From the IMG/VR virus record IMGVR_UViG_2547132255_000004: a stretch of 44,605 nt of DNA. The stretch is one strand, 5' to 3'. A model generated the notes under the pieces. That model ran no database searches and had not been told where the DNA came from. It saw nothing but the letters and a program-made list of their open reading frames with translations. The stretch's first letter is position 1. Every line of letters begins with the position of its first letter. A program made the position numbers and the translations under genes. This document shows positions 3,921 to 17,925 of the stretch, piece by piece. Source of the stretch: a virus. Its lineage: Duplodnaviria > Heunggongvirae > Uroviricota > Caudoviricetes.

Positions 3921-6661
<2,741 letters not shown>

Positions 6662-6666
6662 CCGTT

Positions 6667-6963
6667 TTATACCTCTGAATCAATATCAACATGGTGGTGA
6701 GCAATGGTTTCAACCATGTACCGGATGTGTTCTGCCATGCGCTCCTGAAACTCAACATCGTCATCAAACGCACGGGTAATGGCTTTTTTGCTGGCCCCGT
6801 GGCGTTGCAAATGATCGATGCATAGCGATTCAAACAGGTGCTGGGGCAGGCCTTTTTCCATGTCGTCTGCCAGTTCTGCCTCTTTCTCTTCACGGGCGAT
6901 CTGCTGGTAGTGACGCGCCCAGCTCTGAGCCTCAAGACGATCCTGAATGTAATAAGCGTTCAT
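6667..6963 (-). CDS. gam: Gam (host RecBCD inhibitor), 98-aa form
   Basis: [60 protein letters not shown]...HVDIDSEV recognised as near-identical to lambda Gam. Confidence 0.95.
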
Positions 6964-7038
6964 GGCTGAACTCCTGAAAATGGCTGTGAAACTATTGCCC
7001 GGGAAATGCCAGGCTGATTAGGAAAACAGGAAAGGGGG

Positions 7039-7245
7039 TTAGTGATTCAGGCCGTTGCCGCGTCCGTCGAGAAAAATTTCCACGAGCAAGTCACGGGTAT
7101 AAGTGCGCTCGATGCCGCGATGAAGATAAAGCCGTCCGCGTAGATTAGCTGATGCAGTCCAGGTACCATCTTTGTGTTTGACCAGCATTCCTGGCATGAC
7201 CGCACCGCGATTAACGGTCTGCGTTCCGTAATGTTGATGAACCAT
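7039..7245 (-). CDS. Small early-left protein (68 aa) in the kil/cIII position; identity uncertain
   Basis: Internal ATG (MVHQHYGTQTVNRGAVMPGMLVKHKDGTW...) preceded by a good RBS (GGCAGGAG, 6 nt spacer) inside the 136-aa ORF 7039..7449; sits immediately downstream of the pL-side region and upstream of gam. Confidence 0.45.
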   Translation of the reverse strand: MVHQHYGTQTVNRGAVMPGMLVKHKDGTWTASANLRGRLYLHRGIERTYTRDLLVEIFLDGRGNGLNH

Positions 7246-7494
7246 AAAAACTCCTGCCCGTAAGCTGGGCTGCTGAACATATAGAGACTTCTGCGCGTAT
7301 TCAGGCGGTGGATGGCCGCCGGTTGTCATAACTAAGCCGCCTCGTTGAAGCGACTGAGGTATGAAGTGTTGAGTTGATTTCAGCTGGTCACACCGACGTT
7401 CACGCGTCCGCTTCACCCCTCGCACTCCCCGGAGCCTGCTGAAATTCAAGCTGCGGATCTAAGCGGTCATCGCAACGGTGAATCAGGTGATTGC

Positions 7495-7566
7495 CGTATC
7501 GTTGTGTTGTTGCGACATGGTGATAATAGCTATTGCTATTGATGATATCAATACTTATTGCTATTG
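7495..7566 (-). promoter_or_regulatory. Putative OL/pL-like operator-promoter region
   Basis: Repeated TTGCTATTG motifs flanking a near-palindrome ATTGATGATATCAAT; the same motif recurs in the cI-cro intergenic region; lies just downstream of the terminator that ends the cI operon, as pL does in lambda. Confidence 0.35.
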
Positions 7567-8658
7567 CTAGATGTGTTTTGATATTAAATGTTTGATAGCA
7601 AAAAGAATTAATTTTGTGACTTGCATCGCATAGCGATAACTGAAGCGGGGTTGTGGTGGTTTTTTGAACGGTGTGTGTGATGAGGGGAGGCAAAAGAAAA
7701 CCCGGCACGGTGGCCGGGTAGCATCACTATTCGATTTTTTAACCATGTAGTTACGTCGTGATGTTCCTAATCTTTCATTGTGAATCTCAGAAACGCTTAC
7801 TACGAGCGATATTCGTTCACCAACTTTATATTTACTTTGAATTTCTCCTAACATATCAATCGGATAAGAAGCCTTTATTTTTCCAAGCTCGCTTGCAATC
7901 TCCAATTTCCCGTACATGGATAAAATAGCAAGTTCGCCTGATATATGCTCATCCGGTAGCTGAATGACCTTCGTTAAAGCTAAGCGAGCATTCAGTTTTT
8001 TTATATCTTCTGAAGAAATCGACACTTGTCTGGTACCATCACTTAAAGGTCCAATCCAAGTAAGATCAAAGTTAAGACTATATTTTTCGCACTCATTTAT
8101 GATGTTTTTTAGGTTAGCTGTTGATTGCGAACCAATTTCGGCAATTTTAGCTGTGAATGTTTCTTCATCAATGGATGAGAGTAGTGCAAAAATCTCCTTA
8201 ACAGCATGACTGGATACTGTTTCGATGAGCTCGCAAGAACCAGTAGAAAAAGTAACACCTAACTTCGTCGAACCTGGACGCAAGTCTGCCAATCTCATGT
8301 CTAATGATTTTTTAACATCAATCGGCACACGACTAGAATCTTTCCCAGATCCAAATCGGTAAACTGCTTTCTGTACAAGGGATGCGAGATTACCTGAAAT
8401 TACAGATAGAATATCTAACGGAATAGACCCGAAATCGACCAAAACACCTTTTAATCTCAACTCCATGAAATCACGTAAAGGATGTTGGTTATCGATTGCA
8501 CGTTGTCTCTCTCGGAGATCGCTCAGATGGGAGTCAAGTGATCTAAATATAATGTCATCAGCAAATGATCTCCCCTTATTTTGAGCAAGCAGATCCACAT
8601 CGCGTTGAATGAACGCAATTCGCTCCTTGAGGGAGTTGAATGTTTTTTCTTCGCTCAT
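7567..8658 (-). CDS. Hypothetical 363-aa protein, second gene of the cI-downstream operon; C-terminal about 55 codons are probably read-through
   Basis: Start overlaps the stop of the upstream 157-aa gene (ATGA coupling); coiled-coil-like, charged sequence; the 3' end of the ORF runs through a terminator hairpin and the operator-like repeats with low-complexity translation. Confidence 0.6.
   Translation of the reverse strand: MSEEKTFNSLKERIAFIQRDVDLLAQNKGRSFADDIIFRSLDSHLSDLRERQRAIDNQHPLRDFMELRLKGVLVDFGSIPLDILSVISGNLASLVQKAVYRFGSGKDSSRVPIDVKKSLDMRLADLRPGSTKLGVTFSTGSCELIETVSSHAVKEIFALLSSIDEETFTAKIAEIGSQSTANLKNIINECEKYSLNFDLTWIGPLSDGTRQVSISSEDIKKLNARLALTKVIQLPDEHISGELAILSMYGKLEIASELGKIKASYPIDMLGEIQSKYKVGERISLVVSVSEIHNERLGTSRRNYMVKKSNSDATRPPCRVFFCLPSSHTPFKKPPQPRFSYRYAMQVTKLILFAIKHLISKHI
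7691..7718 (-). terminator. Rho-independent terminator (minus strand) at the end of the cI-downstream operon
   Basis: Stem CCCGGC/GCCGGG with 6-nt loop, followed on the minus strand by TTTTCTTTTG. Confidence 0.5.
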
Positions 8659-9128
8659 AACATTACCCTCACGAGGCCTTTAGGATTCTCCTTCCGATCA
8701 AAACCAAACCACCCTCTCCAGTAACTTCGCCTTTCACTATAATCGATTTCTGGATGATTTTCAGGCAGCAAAAGAACGTCAATGCTGTAGTTTTCTTTAA
8801 TAAAATCTCTATTTAACAATGAGCTAACCAATGGCATCAGCGTGTTTGGCAAAGAGTTTAGGGCCAAATAATCGACGACCACGAGTATATCTATGTCATC
8901 AGGTTCAGGTTTCTCTGTAGTGAATGAACCATCGATCCACACTTCAGAGAAACATAGACACTGCTGATTAACAAGTTTAAATTGCTCAATAAGCTGTATA
9001 AAATTACAGTATAGCATACTTCTTCTAACGGATTTTGGGAAGGTGTCGACACAAAGAGACTTGATGCCATCACTATCCATATCATGAAATCCTGCTGTAA
9101 GAAGAGGTGGGAAGCTAGGCTTTTCCAT
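8655..9128 (-). CDS. Minimal nucleotidyltransferase-like protein (157 aa), first gene after cI
   Basis: Motif WIDGSFTTEKPEPDDIDILVVVD fits the Pol-beta-superfamily signature hG[GS]-x9-13-DhDh; gene starts about 80 bp downstream of the cI stop on the same strand. Confidence 0.6.
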   Translation of the reverse strand: MEKPSFPPLLTAGFHDMDSDGIKSLCVDTFPKSVRRSMLYCNFIQLIEQFKLVNQQCLCFSEVWIDGSFTTEKPEPDDIDILVVVDYLALNSLPNTLMPLVSSLLNRDFIKENYSIDVLLLPENHPEIDYSERRSYWRGWFGFDRKENPKGLVRVML

Positions 9129-9209: not shown

Positions 9210-9902
9210 TTAACCATGCTTCCTGTACGTCTGCGGCATGCTCCCAATAACCTTACCGAAGATGAACACCCGGTTCATCTCGTCTTTCTCGATCGGGTCC
9301 CACGGTGAGTAGCTCTTGTTATCAGAGATAACCAGTAGCTTATCCTTCATCATTTGCAGGCGCTTTACATGGGCTGTGTCGTCGTACAGAAACGCATAGA
9401 TACCATCACCGTCGAAAGATTTAACTGTGATATCAACGAACAGCAGATCACCTGGTTCGATCGTTCCTGACATGCTGTCACCACGCACGTTAATGATGCG
9501 GATATTTTCCGCCTTCCTGCCATCGAACATGTGACGAGCATCGTCAAACGAGTACTCAACCGAGCGTAGAACTTCTACAAACTCACGGTTGATTACACCC
9601 GGCCCGGCACTGACTTCTATATCAAGAACGTCAATTTTGAAGTATTTGGAATGGCTGACAGCAGGCTTCCCTGATTGTTGACCGTCATTTCTCATCGGGC
9701 CTATGCCTGATGAGAGCCATTCTGTTCGAACACCCAATGCATTAGCTATTTCAACAATTTTTGTTGAGCCGCGCGCGTTGCCGCTTGTCAGTCTCCAGAT
9801 TGTGGGTTGAGCTACGCCAGACGCCTTTGCAAGAGCGCCTTGAGACATTCCAGATTGTTCCATCGCTAGGTTTAAGCGATCAGCAAGAGTTTCTTTTTTC
9901 AT
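9210..9902 (-). CDS. cI: CI-type prophage repressor (HTH + S24 LexA-like peptidase domain)
   Basis: N-terminal HTH (MSQGALAKASGVAQPTIWRL); C-terminal autopeptidase motifs (GDSM serine, downstream VKRL lysine); divergent from the cro-like gene; start set at the internal ATG (MKKETL) because the ORF-track start at 9938 is a TTG. Confidence 0.85.
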   Translation of the reverse strand: MKKETLADRLNLAMEQSGMSQGALAKASGVAQPTIWRLTSGNARGSTKIVEIANALGVRTEWLSSGIGPMRNDGQQSGKPAVSHSKYFKIDVLDIEVSAGPGVINREFVEVLRSVEYSFDDARHMFDGRKAENIRIINVRGDSMSGTIEPGDLLFVDITVKSFDGDGIYAFLYDDTAHVKRLQMMKDKLLVISDNKSYSPWDPIEKDEMNRVFIFGKVIGSMPQTYRKHG

Positions 9903-10006
9903 AAGTTTTAATTTATACGCTTGCGTATTGATGGTCAAAACACGTTTTGCTATTGCTTGAGTTAATACGCATTGCTATTATTCATTCATTGCAATACTAA
10001 TAGGAA
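9903..10006. promoter_or_regulatory. Putative OR operator / pR-pRM region between cI and cro
   Basis: Divergent cI/cro intergenic region containing palindrome ATACGCTTGCGTAT (about 9915-9928) and TTGCTATTG-type motifs shared with the putative OL. Confidence 0.4.
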
Positions 10007-11825: not shown

Positions 11826-12523
11826 AAAACATCGCCGCACAGATGGTTAACTTTGACCGTGAGCAGATGCGTCGGATCGCCAACAACATGCCGGAACAGT
11901 ACGACGAAAAGCCGCAGGTACAACAGGTAGCGCAGATCATCAATGGTGTGTTCAGCCAGTTACTGGCAACTTTCCCAGCGAGCCTGGCTAACCGGGACCA
12001 GAACGAACTGAACGAAATCCGCCGCCAGTGGGTGCTGGCTTTCCGGGAAAACGGGATCACCACAATGGAACAGGTTAACGCAGGAATGCGCGTAGCCCGT
12101 CGGCAGAATCGACCATTCCTGCCATCACCCGGGCAGTTTGTTGCCTGGTGCCGGGAAGAAGCATCCGTTACCGCCGGGCTGCCAAACGCCAGCGAGCTGG
12201 TTGATATGGTTTACGAGTATTGCCGGAAGCGTGGCCTGTATCCGGACGCAGAGTCTTATCCATGGAAATCGAACGCGCACTACTGGCTGGTTACCAACCT
12301 GTACCAGAACATGCGAGCCAATGCGCTGACTGACGCGGAATTACGGCGCAAGGCTGCTGATGAACTGACCTGTATGACAGCGCGAATTAACCGTGGTGAG
12401 GCTATACCTGAACCAGTAAAACAACTTCCTGTCATGGGCGGTAGACCTCTAAATCGTGCACAGGCTCTGGCGAAGATCGCAGAAATTAAAGCTAAGTTCG
12501 GACTGAAAGGAGCCAGTGTATGA
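11822..12523 (+). CDS. P: Replication protein P (DnaB helicase loader)
   Basis: 233-aa protein recognised as near-identical to lambda P (MKNIAAQMVNFDREQMRRIANNMPEQYDEKPQVQQ...KFGLKGASV). Confidence 0.95.
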   Translation: MKNIAAQMVNFDREQMRRIANNMPEQYDEKPQVQQVAQIINGVFSQLLATFPASLANRDQNELNEIRRQWVLAFRENGITTMEQVNAGMRVARRQNRPFLPSPGQFVAWCREEASVTAGLPNASELVDMVYEYCRKRGLYPDAESYPWKSNAHYWLVTNLYQNMRANALTDAELRRKAADELTCMTARINRGEAIPEPVKQLPVMGGRPLNRAQALAKIAEIKAKFGLKGASV

Positions 12524-12813
12524 CGGGAAAAGAAGCAATTATTCATTACCTGGGAACGCATAAGAGCTTCTGTGTGCAGGACGTTGCTGCGGTAACAGGC
12601 GCAACAGTAACCAGCATCAATCAGGTAGCAGCCAAAATGGCACGGGCCAGAATTCTAGTTATTGATGGCAAGGTCTGGCGAACGGTGTATTACCGGTTCG
12701 CTACCAGGGAGGAGCGGGAAGGAAAGGTGAGCACGAACCTGATTTTCAAGGAGTGTCGCCAGAGTGCCGTGATGAAACGGGTATTGATGTTTTGGGGGAG
12801 GGTAGGGGTATGA
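12520..12813 (+). CDS. ren: Ren protein
   Basis: 97-aa protein MTGKEAIIHYLGTH...VWRTVYYRFATREEREGK... matches lambda Ren; start overlaps the P stop. Confidence 0.9.
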   Translation: MTGKEAIIHYLGTHKSFCVQDVAAVTGATVTSINQVAAKMARARILVIDGKVWRTVYYRFATREEREGKVSTNLIFKECRQSAVMKRVLMFWGRVGV

Positions 12814-13100
12814 GCGAAACGTTATGAGTGTGTGGGTATTCGTGCCATTGCGATGTGGTAGAGAGTGCTGAGGGCGTCATGGTTGTGTTGCGAAGACTAC
12901 GTTGCACTTGAGCAGGATCTTGCAGAATTTGAGCGCGAGTTCCGTGTTGCTGATGCGACTATACCCTCGATGTAGAGGAACTTAATTAGCTGATTGTAAT
13001 TCAATATGCCTACTAAGACCGGTTGGGTATGAACTAGTAAAGGCTGCAAAATCCTATAGAGTGTTAACGCAACCAAAAACGTTAAGCACGGAGAAAAAAC

Positions 13101-13853
13101 ATGGATCCTAAATTACTGTATGCCACGTTTAAACGAAATGACGCACCAGCTTGGCGCTGCCCGAACTGTATGAATGAAACACTGGAGATTGTCGCTGATA
13201 GTTTTGTAGAAACTGATTCAAGCGCAACAACTCAGTTTAGAGATGAAGTATGGTTTGATGAGGAAATGTCGGGAGGAGTATTCAGTTGCGTGCTGCGCTG
13301 TACCCGCCAAGCCTGCCAGGAGAAGGTTGCTTTGTCTGGGCAGGTTGTTGTTGTAGAATGCTTCAATGACGAAATGACGGAGCGTTGGTATGTTTCTGGT
13401 TTCCGTCCTAAGTATTTCTATCCACCACTTCCTCTATTCCTGTTTCCTGAAAAGTGCCCTGAAGATATAGCTGATCTCTTGGCGGAAGTATCAGCTCTGA
13501 TCCCCTCGCACCCAGCTTCAGCGGTGAACACCATGAGAACCATACTGGAGATGATGCTTGATAGTCTTGATGTACCAAGAGAGAAAACAGTTAAAGGCAA
13601 GATAATACGTCTTTCTACGCATGAAAGAATCACAAATTATTCAGATAAACTGGGACCAAATAAAGATGCATTCATGGCGTTAAAGTGGTTGGGGAATCAC
13701 GGCAGTCATGGAGGGATTAAAGTCACAAGGTCCTCTATTAATGATGCCTGCATTCTCATTGGTCATTTGATTGACTTCTTATTCTTAGAAAGCCCGGATG
13801 TAACTATTCATATTGAACGGATAAACAACGTGTATGCACCCAAAAAGGAGTAA
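13101..13853 (+). CDS. Hypothetical 250-aa protein with N-terminal zinc-ribbon-like cysteine cluster
   Basis: CPNC...(about 38 aa)...CVLRCTRQAC cysteine pattern; RBS GGAG upstream; C-terminal region contains LKWLGNHGSHGG; sits in the cargo position between ren and ninB. Confidence 0.6.
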   Translation: MDPKLLYATFKRNDAPAWRCPNCMNETLEIVADSFVETDSSATTQFRDEVWFDEEMSGGVFSCVLRCTRQACQEKVALSGQVVVVECFNDEMTERWYVSGFRPKYFYPPLPLFLFPEKCPEDIADLLAEVSALIPSHPASAVNTMRTILEMMLDSLDVPREKTVKGKIIRLSTHERITNYSDKLGPNKDAFMALKWLGNHGSHGGIKVTRSSINDACILIGHLIDFLFLESPDVTIHIERINNVYAPKKE

Positions 13854-14108
13854 AACGTAACGCCATGTCGAAGCGGAATATTGCCGCTAAAACACAAGAA
13901 GAGCGCGAGAAGGTTAACGTTGACCTTGCTGTCTCCTGAGTGGCCTACAAAGAGCGCCTTAATATACCGGTTATTGCCGAAGCGGTGATGCGTGAGCAGC
14001 CTGAGCATTTGCGGGGCTATTTTTTGGGGCGGCCACGACATTACCGCGAGCAGACATCGCTCTGCCCAAGGCATCCGCCCCTCGACATCTTAAGCAGGAA
14101 GGTGAAAA

Positions 14109-14591
14109 ATGATAAGTGCAGAAGGACTGCAGCGGTTACTTAATTTATCGGAGCCTCCATCTGATGAACTGATTGATGTTTATCTTCAATTCAGCATGAT
14201 TTTTCCTAGGGTCGAGCAAAGTTTTTTTGGTGGCTTTGCTAAGGGGGAAGACAGTTTAAATTATGCTCGAACGTTACTTGACGCCGGGATAAAGGTGCCC
14301 AACGAACTTTTTCACGATTTTAAGCAGAGATACATTTTGAACGGGGATGCGCAGGAAAGACTTGACGCCCTCTGTTTCGGTCGAGAGAGAGATAAGCGGG
14401 GAATAGTTAATGGGCTTCAAAATGACGCAGCAACAGATCTAAACACCATGTCTACAGTATTAAAGATAGTTATAAGGATAAGAAATAACCTTTTCCACGG
14501 GAATAAAGACGCTTATCTTTTTGTTGATTCTCAAGAGCAAGCGCAACTATTGAGATGGTGCGTGAGATTTCTCCAAGGATTATTAAATTAA
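14109..14591 (+). CDS. Hypothetical 160-aa protein with C-terminal Rx4H (HEPN-like) motif
   Basis: [14 protein letters not shown] near the C-terminus fits the HEPN R-x4-6-H signature; second gene of the ren-ninB cargo. Confidence 0.55.
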
Positions 14592-14780
14592 TCTGCCTTT
14601 GATTTTCACTAATCAACTCGCCATAATCATGTCATCGGAGCCTGAACAACTCCGGTGACTTCTGCGCTAAACGGGGACGTTTATGCGCACATACAATCCA
14701 AACTCTCTTCTCCCTTCACAGATGCAGAAATGCACCTGCGATTTTTTGCATCCAGCGTCTGACCTCTGTGGAGGTGAAGC

Positions 14781-15236
14781 GTGAACCTACCACAAGATGG
14801 CATCAAACTGCATCGCGGTAACTTCACCGCTATCGGTCAGCAGATCCAGCCTTATCTGGAGGACGGCAAATGCTTTCGCATGGTGCTTAAACCGTGGCGC
14901 GAGAGACGCAGTCTTTCCCAGAATGCACTTAGCCACATGTGGTACAGCGAAATCAGTGAATACCTCATAAGCAGGGGGAAATCGTTCGCTACTGCAGCAT
15001 GGGTAAAAGATGCTCTCAAACACACATACCTCGGTTATGAAACCAAAGACCTGGTTGATGTCGTAACCGGTGAAATCACCACTATTCAGTCGTTACGCCA
15101 TACCTCCGATCTTGATACCGGAGAGATGTATGTCTTCCTGTGTAAGGTTGAAGCCTGGGCGATGAATATTGGCTGCCACCTGACTATTCCGCCGAGCTGC
15201 GAGTTCCAGCTGCTGCGCGACAAGCAGGAGGCGTAA
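14781..15236 (+). CDS. ninB: NinB-family recombination protein
   Basis: 151-aa protein with RSLSQN...W motif resembling lambda NinB (orf146); GTG start with RBS GGAGG. Confidence 0.75.
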
Positions 15237-16842: not shown

Positions 16843-17925
16843 TTAGAACTGATAAACCAGACCTACAGCGACGATGTCGTCGGTATCAATACCAGCTGTT
16901 TTGGTAAACTTACTATCGTCAATTAAGTTGATTTTGTAATCAACAAAAGTGGACATGTTTTTATTAAAGTAGTAAGTAGCACCGACATCGACATACTTGA
17001 CTAAGTCTCGGTCACCATGAACACCAAGGTCTTTACCTTTTGACTGAAGGTAAGCAACAGATGGTCGCAGACCGAAGTCAAACTGATATTGTGCTACTGC
17101 TTCAAAGTTTTGTGCTTTGTTTGCAATATGGTTATTACCAAAAACGGTCATATTCTGAGTTTCAGAATATGTGGTAGCCAGATAGATATTGTTCGCATCA
17201 TATTTCAGGCCTGCAGCCCATACTTCCGCATTTTTGCCGGAGGCATTGAATTTGCTCTTACCATAGGCGACCTGACCGTCAGTGCGATCTGATTTAGCAT
17301 AGGTTGCACCCACGCCGAATCCTTCATACTCATAAGTAGTGGAGAAACCGAAACCATCACCATTGGCTTCAGTTACGTCAGTGCGGTCATTTTTACCCTG
17401 ATACTGAGCAGCAAAGTTCAGGCCATCGACCAGACCAAAGAAGTCGTTGTTACGATAAGTTGCAACACCAGTAGTGCGACCAGTCATGAACACATCTGTT
17501 TGGGTCCAGGTATCACCACCGAATTCTGGCAGGACGTCAGTCCACGCACCGATGTCGTATGCTACACCGTAGTTACGGCCGTAATCGATTGAGCCGTAAT
17601 CACCAAATTTCAGGCCTGCAAATGCAAGACGGGTTTTGTCTTTGGAAGAACCTTGAGATTCAGCACGGTTGCCTTTGAATTCATATTCCCACTGACCGAA
17701 ACCAGTCAGTTGATCGTTGATTTGGGTTTCACCTTTGAAGCCAAGACGGGCATAAGTAGTATCACCATCATCTGCATCATTAGAGGAGAAGTAGTGCTTG
17801 GCATTAACTTTCCCGTATAGATCCAGCTTGTTACTGTCTTTATTATAAATTTCAGCTGCCTGAGCAGACATCGCCATCAGTACTGATGCAGCTACAGCAG
17901 AAATTGCCACTGTTAATTTTTTCAT
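16843..17925 (-). CDS. nmpC: Outer-membrane general porin, OmpC/OmpF family (NmpC/Lc-type prophage porin)
   Basis: 360-aa protein with signal peptide ([23 protein letters not shown]), porin motifs and C-terminal ...VAVGLVYQF; located between Q and the holin as nmpC is in DLP12. Confidence 0.92.

Follow-up and report, generated by a model that had tools for sequence, protein, structure and literature searches.

The stretch of DNA analysed here (the window) comprises all 44,605 nucleotides of the virus record IMGVR_UViG_2547132255_000004 (Caudoviricetes) and represents an Escherichia coli lambdoid prophage, which is 99.9% identical to a prophage of strain NC101 and its relatives. Between its ren gene and its ninB-type gene lie two open reading frames (ORFs), termed here ORF250 and ORF160 after the length of their products in amino acids (aa), and a degenerate gene for a homologue of the theta subunit of DNA polymerase III (Table 1). 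Since the gap between ren and ninB in lambda is only 73 bp, and since the homology of the window to lambda and PhiR30_1 is lost after 12786 and comes back from 14598, the insert is real and adds about 1.8 kb to what is found in lambda. This extra DNA had been recognized in an earlier reading of the letters alone (the original prediction), together with both ORFs, the zinc-ribbon-like cysteine cluster of the first and the peptide RIRNNLFHG of the second, and all of these are present as described there. We consider it probable that the insert consists of two independently inherited accessory units and not of one module, and it is proposed that the RAZR-like ORF250 and the HEPN-like ORF160 are both stand-alone defence effectors.

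The division of the insert is evident from pairwise comparisons, in which the homologies of the window break at 12786, at 13091-13847, at 13872 and at 14598. The first unit is taken as 12787-13871 (a leader and ORF250) and the second as 13872-14597 (the dead theta gene and ORF160). The latter occurs as one block in prophages of Klebsiella, Salmonella and Enterobacter, and it is the remnant of a theta-plus-cargo arrangement common in enterobacterial lambdoid prophages. A Serratia prophage shares ORF250 alone (13091-13847, 72% DNA identity).

Table 1. The ren-ninB interval with its two anchor genes (coordinates of the window)
Feature	Position	Strand	Description or basis
ren, left anchor	12520-12813	+	97-aa ORF; 92-94% DNA identity to ren of lambda and PhiR30_1 up to 12786
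Orphan non-coding leader	12787-13100	+	accompanies the DUF4145 gene in E. coli
ORF250, 250 aa	13101-13853	+	predicted zinc-binding, beta-rich N-domain and C-terminal DUF4145/HEPN domain
ORF250 cysteine cluster C20, C23, C63, C67, C72	13158-13316	+	conservation in homologues
ORF250 HEPN active-site position K195-x3-N199-x3-H203	13683-13709	+	conservation; spacing as in RAZR
Theta pseudogene (HolE / P1 Hot-like)	13865-14112	+	RefSeq annotation and alignment to intact copies
ORF160, 160 aa, all-alpha	14109-14591	+	unannotated family with HEPN-like R-x4-H motif
ORF160 motif R125-N-N-L-F-H130	14481-14498	+	E36 at 14214-14216; also K133
Start of phage-82-type ybcN module	14598-14784	+	promoter-like site and orf33; outside the cargo
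ninB/ybcN-type gene, right anchor	14781-15236	+	151-aa ORF

The two genes part company wherever either of them is found outside the E. coli cassette. None of 47 ORF160-family loci holds an ORF250-like gene, and none of six loci with an ORF250 homologue holds an ORF160-like gene. Relatives of ORF160 have no DUF4145 neighbour in the Klebsiella, Salmonella and Enterobacter prophages, at 35 remote IMG/VR loci or at five chromosomal loci, and the Serratia relatives of ORF250 never adjoin a gene of the 160-aa type. In E. coli A3024 (locus L019, 583-2216) an ORF160 allele without a single amino-acid difference from that of the window is preceded by genes for PRTase-CE and NADAR, which replace ren, ORF250 and most of theta; the last ~20 theta codons survive, with the ribosome-binding site of ORF160. 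PRTase and NADAR constitute the domain pair of the validated system DS-32 (DefensePredictor, Science 2026). In PhiR30_1 the slot between ren and ninB is filled by an acyltransferase and a lipoprotein. The earlier suggestion of horizontally acquired cargo is supported, and the slot that holds this cargo in the prophage is a variable one.

The original prediction went further and took the cargo for a candidate defence or toxin module; in one toxin-antitoxin-like or abortive-infection (Abi) module of this kind, the 160-aa protein would be a HEPN toxin and the 250-aa protein its zinc-ribbon regulator or sensor. It is true that ORF250 and ORF160 are adjacent, co-oriented and co-inherited in about 47-50 E. 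coli genomes, but they are uncoupled, with a 255-bp pseudogene between them, and their co-occurrence does not extend beyond one recent cassette, every copy of which carries an ORF250 of at least 99% identity. Moreover, ORF160 is found behind other upstream cargo, ORF250 is found alone in P2-like prophages, and ORF250 possesses a HEPN domain of its own. Such a module seems highly improbable, and given the co-occurrence counts above and the position of ORF160 behind PRTase and NADAR in A3024, it was rejected. A tempting annotation of the locus as a two-gene module is corrected in this way.

ORF250 contains the peptides CPNC, CVLRCTRQAC and LKWLGNHGSHGG. It matches the Pfam family DUF4145 (PF13643, clan CL0291) over residues 132-216 with an E-value of 8e-12 and 45.5 bits against a cut-off of 23.1, and PF13643 is annotated in all 15 of its homologues. 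DUF4145 belongs to the families of the HEPN clan (PMC3710099). The AlphaFold2 (AF2) model, with a predicted local distance difference test score (pLDDT) of 86.7, comprises a beta-rich N-domain, from residue 1 to ~110, and a helical C-domain (~120-230) with the four-helix HEPN fold. Eleven residues are invariant in the 15 homologues, the most distant of which is 33% identical: the five cysteines C20, C23, C63, C67 and C72, as well as N143, R146, E150, K195, N199 and H203. In the model the cysteines flank the beta-strands of the N-domain, where they are predicted to bind zinc, while K195, N199 and H203 occupy the C-terminal end of helix 181-203, ahead of the last long helix. The motifs that drew attention to the locus are thus more than chance resemblances, being invariant in these 15 homologues and, for ORF160, in 81 relatives. 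The HEPN and defence theme of the original prediction holds, in so far as HEPN-type chemistry is still the best lead and defence of the Abi type the most plausible role; its assignment to the proteins does not, for it is ORF250 that carries the DUF4145/HEPN domain. ORF250 corresponds to WP_000371307.1, which some recent RefSeq records call a 'DUF8608 domain-containing protein' and not a DUF4145 one; DUF8608 is possibly a newer model that covers part of the protein, perhaps the N-domain.

In E. coli the ORF250 gene is rare, being present in 52 of 5,426 complete genomes, with at least 99% identity throughout. A P2-like prophage of Serratia marcescens (locus L011) contains a 70%-identical homologue that stands alone, between genes for the baseplate and for tail completion and on the strand opposite to the late genes. 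Beside this homologue is a complete Septu system (6004-7813; PtuA, E 2e-148; PtuB, E 2e-93); the place, with the P2-type gene for tail completion (gpS) on one side and that for the spike (gpV) on the other, is a moron site of such prophages. Another homologue is located in a Serratia island, next to a RiboL-PSP-HEPN gene. The family is thus met in three unrelated neighbourhoods (the lambdoid nin region, a P2-like prophage and the Serratia island) with no conserved partner, as is proper to a stand-alone gene, and the Serratia loci together with the rarity in E. coli support an accessory or defence role that ORF250 would perform by itself.

The closest characterised architecture to ORF250 is that of RAZR, also termed PD-T7-4, which was reportedly discovered by Vassallo et al. 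in 2022. In RAZR a Cys4 zinc finger at the N-terminus is combined with a DUF4145 HEPN domain at the C-terminus, R146 and H154 being essential; the protein cleaves single-stranded RNA, acts by abortive infection and assembles as a 24-mer ring around the phage portal or Gp77 rings, with the zinc finger setting specificity (Zhang et al., Nature 2026, PMC13017515). Like RAZR, ORF250 is the product of a single gene in E. coli accessory DNA and has a cysteine-rich N-terminal domain followed by a DUF4145-type HEPN domain, and the distance from the basic residue to the histidine is the same in both proteins (x7; R146...H154 in RAZR and K195...H203 in ORF250). The sequence of RAZR varies most in its zinc domain, a fact that fits an ORF250 family with diverging N-domains. 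In contrast to the ~65 aa of RAZR, however, the N-domain of ORF250 is ~110 aa long and beta-rich, and the catalytic arginine is replaced by an invariant lysine.

By analogy with RAZR, ORF250 would stay idle as an oligomer in the lysogen until, in the course of a phage infection, its N-domain recognises one of the assembled proteins of that phage. Its HEPN domains might then be arranged into active RNase sites at which RNA is cleaved, and the cleavage would stop translation, so that the infection would be aborted.

The combination of HEPN and zinc-finger-type domains in one E. coli protein is also known from DS-38 (WP_001313577.1, 366 aa), a single protein validated against phages (DefensePredictor, Science 2026). 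DS-38 differs from ORF250 in that the order of its parts is reversed, with the HEPN domain (RNRVVH) at the N-terminus and a multi-Cys region at the C-terminus; by this order and by its length, an identity of ORF250 with DS-38 was rejected. Unlike the HEPN-MNT protein HepT, RiboL-PSP-HEPN (PD-T4-2_B), Csm6 and AbiD/F (PMC3710099), neither ORF250 nor ORF160 is accompanied by MNT, CARF or another classical partner. Both depart from the classical HEPN effectors also in themselves, ORF250 by the absence of the arginine and the ORF160 family by the absence of a Pfam model and of a significant profile or fold match.

ORF160 shows no amino-acid difference from WP_000622059.1. Its sole match in the profile libraries is phrog_27260 (E 1e-91), of unknown function, and no match was obtained in Pfam, NCBIfam or PADLOC, so that of the two proteins only ORF250 was placed by the Pfam search. 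Close homologues are few and enterobacterial. The family as a whole is large: an exhaustive profile search recovered 174 representatives at the 50% identity level. A second one, at the 90% level, gave 968 clusters or more, which are labelled 'hypothetical' throughout and lack Pfam domains. In 81 relatives of 19-40% identity E36, R74, R123, R125, N127, H130 and K133 are invariant, and the pattern R-[NHDQ]-x3-H is kept by 141 of 149 distant representatives. ORF160 therefore contains the HEPN motif R-x4-6-H with a polar residue after the arginine. In HEPN proteins this motif is placed at the end of helix 3 or in the loop to helix 4, and a conserved acidic residue lies upstream (PMC3710099). The AF2 prediction for ORF160 has eight helices (pLDDT 78.7 in the best model, 37-44 in the other four), and in this model of moderate confidence the motif ends the penultimate helix (110-130), before a loop and the last helix (141-159), with the acidic residue E36 located upstream in helix 19-40. 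Structure prediction has in this way returned a HEPN fold for ORF250 and, for ORF160, a motif at the expected place but no significant fold match.

Is ORF160 a HEPN protein at all? One may argue that R-x4-H has arisen by convergence on an unrelated helical fold with another function, given that no HEPN family was matched significantly by profile or by fold and that no more than one of the five AF2 models is confident. Against this stands the full signature, which is invariant (the arginine, the polar asparagine, the histidine four residues later, the upstream glutamate and the position at the end of the penultimate helix), and such weak family profile matches as exist are all to HEPN families: two of the 81 relatives match HEPN_RiboL-PSP (best E 1e-4) and single members match, weakly, DUF3644, DUF4209 and SWT1_3rd. 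All four are HEPN families (PMC3710099). Independently, HHblits in the DefensePredictor study assigned WP_000622059.1 with 59.5% probability to the RiboL-PSP-HEPN protein PD-T4-2_B, over 29% of the protein, and Table S10 of that study lists it as 'Predicted novel defense gene' with a mean log-odds of 12.9 (Science 2026). Convergence is accordingly a serious possibility, though we hold it to be the less probable one.

The reading of ORF160 as a HEPN-like effector gains from its evolution and its neighbourhoods. The ratio of nonsynonymous to synonymous substitutions (dN/dS) amounts to 0.09-0.16 between genera and 0.16-0.20 within E. coli, and the gene is under purifying selection. Distant relatives are the last, 3'-most genes of operons on mobile islands, with genes for AAA_21/SMC, TauD and T5orf172 in one type and with an ORC/Cdc6-like gene and two unknown genes in another, and also near ImmA/IrrE-type peptidases, a PIN/MazE pair, transposases and integrases. 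With such varied neighbours, the family behaves as a portable effector domain. No tblastn match to ORF160 was obtained in 50,697 records of isolated phages. Motif, selection and context together suggest that ORF160 may be a small, dimeric, metal-independent HEPN-like RNase, which would act as a single-gene defence or toxin effector.

The spacer between both genes is annotated in RefSeq as 'DNA polymerase III subunit theta; frameshifted; internal stop'. Alignment to intact copies from Salmonella, Klebsiella and Enterobacter located two lesions, namely a TGA at 13937-13939, where GGA/GGC has been changed, and the loss of one base near 14053/14054, the premature stop being common to the E. coli copies examined (IAI1, PK8566). 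An intact Salmonella homologue matches PF06440 with an E-value of 1.4e-30, and intact prophage copies are 54% identical to HolE over the core, so that the spacer, like P1 Hot and E. coli HolE, is a PF06440 homologue. In contrast to Hot and HolE, the copy of the window is a pseudogene, by premature stop and frameshift, and nothing evident connects it functionally with ORF250 or ORF160. Its stop codon overlaps the start codon of ORF160 in the sequence ATGA (14109-14112). The supposition that the intergenic stretches flanking the cargo are decayed coding sequence is correct for this middle spacer but fails for the other two, as 12787-13100 is an orphan leader and 14598-14780 is a promoter-like region with an intact orf33.

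The ATGA overlap recurs in all seven close loci of Klebsiella, Salmonella and Enterobacter, and 13 of 35 remote ORF160 relatives (23-34% identity) adjoin a theta homologue, sometimes in reversed order. From these facts it might be supposed that theta and ORF160 are a functional pair, for instance an epsilon-binding, theta-like antitoxin or sensor for a HEPN-like RNase, of which the E. coli copies would be decaying remnants. However, the linkage is not reciprocal. Prophage theta loci number at least 555 in IMG/VR, and in the best 80 of them (L073-L152), to which the slot analysis was applied, theta never has an ORF160 relative beside it; the first downstream gene, callable in 75, belongs to about 22 unrelated families, nearly all of them unannotated, 73-216 aa long and in many cases ATGA-coupled to theta. 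The adjacency of theta and ORF160 is on these grounds best explained as a shared hotspot. It was also found that ORF160 remains intact, with the low dN/dS given above, in the E. coli lineages that share the premature theta stop; theta is therefore unlikely to be a required antitoxin, since intact ORF160 persists after theta inactivation. Finally, distant members of the ORF160 family have entirely different partners. Functional pairing of theta with ORF160 is, in our estimation, quite improbable, and the literature on a link between theta and HEPN proteins yielded nothing relevant.

What remains constant around theta is the slot itself. In 59 of the best 80 theta loci the distance from theta to the downstream ninB is 201-834 bp, and theta is 65-69% conserved where its ORF160-like neighbour is just 23-28% identical. 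This fits a hypervariable cargo slot in the interval from theta to ninB, with ORF160 as one of many alternative occupants. As at the P2/P4 hotspots and the lambdoid moron sites, the flanks are conserved, with ren or P at one end and theta and ninB at the other, and the cargo between them is interchangeable; it comprises DUF4145, PRTase with NADAR, acyltransferase with lipoprotein, NACHT, methyltransferase and the PADLOC candidate PDC-S67, the last as an occupant directly after theta (E 1e-41). Another occupant after theta, of 211 aa (L078:1746-2381), also has an R-x4-H motif (IRNKYAH) and shows a weak PADLOC match to the HEPN region of Csm6 (E 0.003), and from it HEPN-like cargo appears to have entered the slot more than once. 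To our knowledge the theta-ninB junction with its ATGA-coupled cargo has not been described as a hotspot; literature searches on theta and prophages gave nothing relevant, though no dedicated search was made. In Enterobacter mori (L009, 4756-7776) theta has likewise lost part of its length, an early stop leaving 62 aa, and ORF160 is followed by a gene for a 633-aa NACHT protein; this locus is a further case of defence-type cargo accumulating in the theta-ninB interval.

Most likely, each of the two genes encodes a stand-alone abortive-infection RNase, a function suggested by fold, motif and context, and the observations that speak against it should be considered together. In ORF250 the histidine H203 is invariant and well placed, yet the position of the catalytic arginine is taken by lysine (K195) in 15 of 15 homologues. 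According to Anantharaman et al. (2013), only ~80% of DUF4145 proteins conserve the motif (PMC3710099). With lysine in the place of an arginine on which RAZR and other HEPN RNases depend, ORF250 may have weak catalytic activity or none. The PADLOC model of PD-T7-4 does not match ORF250 at E-values up to 10 and matches one of its 15 homologues at 0.026; ORF250 has no sequence match among PDB chains, and the RAZR entries 9Y9C and 9Y6U are absent from the results of both the sequence and the fold search. For the ORF160 family, hhalign gave a non-significant probability of 0.2% against DUF4145, and the comparisons of ORF160 with a single RiboL-PSP-HEPN protein and with the HEPN domain of DS-38 were likewise not significant. 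Nor is either gene indispensable: a G-to-T change at 14385 (GAG to TAG), present in NC101 and the strains derived from it, cuts ORF160 to 92 aa, the allele of the window being intact, and in four of the 52 E. coli genomes the ORF250 gene is represented over less than 80% of its length, the three listed having its 3' part only.

The place of the genes is a further difficulty. The nin region of lambda is transcribed from pR during lytic growth. Both ORF250 and ORF160 lie in this region, and the consensus scan found no convincing promoter of their own, although expression in the lysogen is needed for defence. One or both proteins could instead serve the phage, in the lytic cycle or in counter-defence, through pR-expressed RNA processing, through host shut-off or as a dead HEPN domain that binds nucleic acid. 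The common orientation of the genes with the early-right operon agrees with this, as do the lysine of ORF250 in place of the catalytic arginine, the PHROGs label of phrog_1305 ('DNA binding protein') and the size of most alternative occupants after theta, which at 73-90 aa are as tiny as is typical of anti-defence proteins. Members of the ORF250 family are, however, encountered outside phage early operons, both in the P2-like prophage, beside Septu and on the strand opposite to the late genes, and in a chromosomal island, while the ORF160 family resides in non-phage mobile islands, is missing from the phage records mentioned above and is scored as defensive by DefensePredictor. A service to the phage itself is in consequence unlikely.

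Taken jointly, a more far-reaching set of claims, namely that ORF160 founds a widespread family (some 1,000 clusters or more at 90% identity) of stand-alone HEPN-like antiphage RNases, that theta-ninB in enterobacterial lambdoid prophages is a new hotspot, with cargo in many cases coupled to theta in translation and with dozens of unknown single-gene immunity or counter-immunity proteins in store, and that ORF250 is a lysine-variant cousin of RAZR with a large N-domain sensing another phage structure, is conceivable but doubtful as a whole. As to novelty, ORF160 belongs to a large uncharacterised family that computation had flagged before, the theta-ninB hotspot is apparently undescribed, and ORF250 appears to be a variation on a recently characterised kind. 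If ORF250 does defend, the principle of RAZR, a zinc-finger HEPN RNase activated by assembly on a phage structure, would reach a second, sequence-distinct lineage with another sensor domain, and the natural Arg-to-Lys variant of its active site would be useful for defining the target of the zinc domain and the role of the arginine. ORF160, which a published machine-learning model ranks as defensive, offers a concrete and cheaply testable representative of a large family of 'hypothetical proteins', and the theta-ninB slot provides a simple genomic address from which more uncharacterised prophage cargo genes may be harvested.

The outer parts of the interval have origins of their own. The leader upstream of ORF250 is confined to ~50 E. 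coli genomes, which also carry the DUF4145 gene, and is absent from the Serratia copy, where homology begins at 13091. It had no blastn match in the 50,697 phage records, no coding remnant was detected in it, a 59-aa antisense ORF (12897-13076) lacks a Pfam match, and no promoter in 12787-13100 passed the consensus scan. Promoter and terminator counts did not exceed those of shuffled sequence, the sole meaningful site being the phage-82-type promoter at 14599-14627, and the searches for structured RNAs and cargo-flanking repeats yielded no more than Rfam noise below the threshold and short repeats of chance origin. In the run of adenines directly 5' of the ORF250 start (13087-13093, the spacer of the ribosome-binding site) the window has six and NC101 seven, and other near-identical E. 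coli matches are also one base longer than the window here; this difference could alter the translation efficiency of ORF250.

On the right side, the start of the ybcN module (14598-14784) is 95% identical to phage 82 (X92588); the module holds the putative promoter, orf33 (14683-14784, intact) and orf151/ybcN. Putative -35 and -10 signals are marked in the X92588 record, as are a regulator-binding repeat and orf33, and the -35 (14599-14604) and -10 (14622-14627) hexamers were also recovered by the consensus promoter scan. The gene at the right anchor matches Pfam NinB with an E-value of 1.4e-4, slightly under the curated cut-off, and is named 'DNA base-flipping protein YbcN' in RefSeq.

Two further accessory loci were noticed elsewhere in the window. 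At the rexAB position, beside a cI-like repressor gene (9210-9938, minus strand), the genes 7567-8658 and 8655-9128, both on the minus strand, correspond to the PADLOC candidate defence system PDC-M63 (PDC-M63B, E 1e-41; PDC-M63A/DUF6932, E 7e-43). The original prediction, which counted the ren-ninB cargo as its second candidate module, probably had these two genes as its first. Right after the gene of the Q antiterminator, on the opposite strand, lies an OmpC-like porin gene (16843-17925, minus strand), a classical lambdoid moron that is annotated as ompC in NC101.

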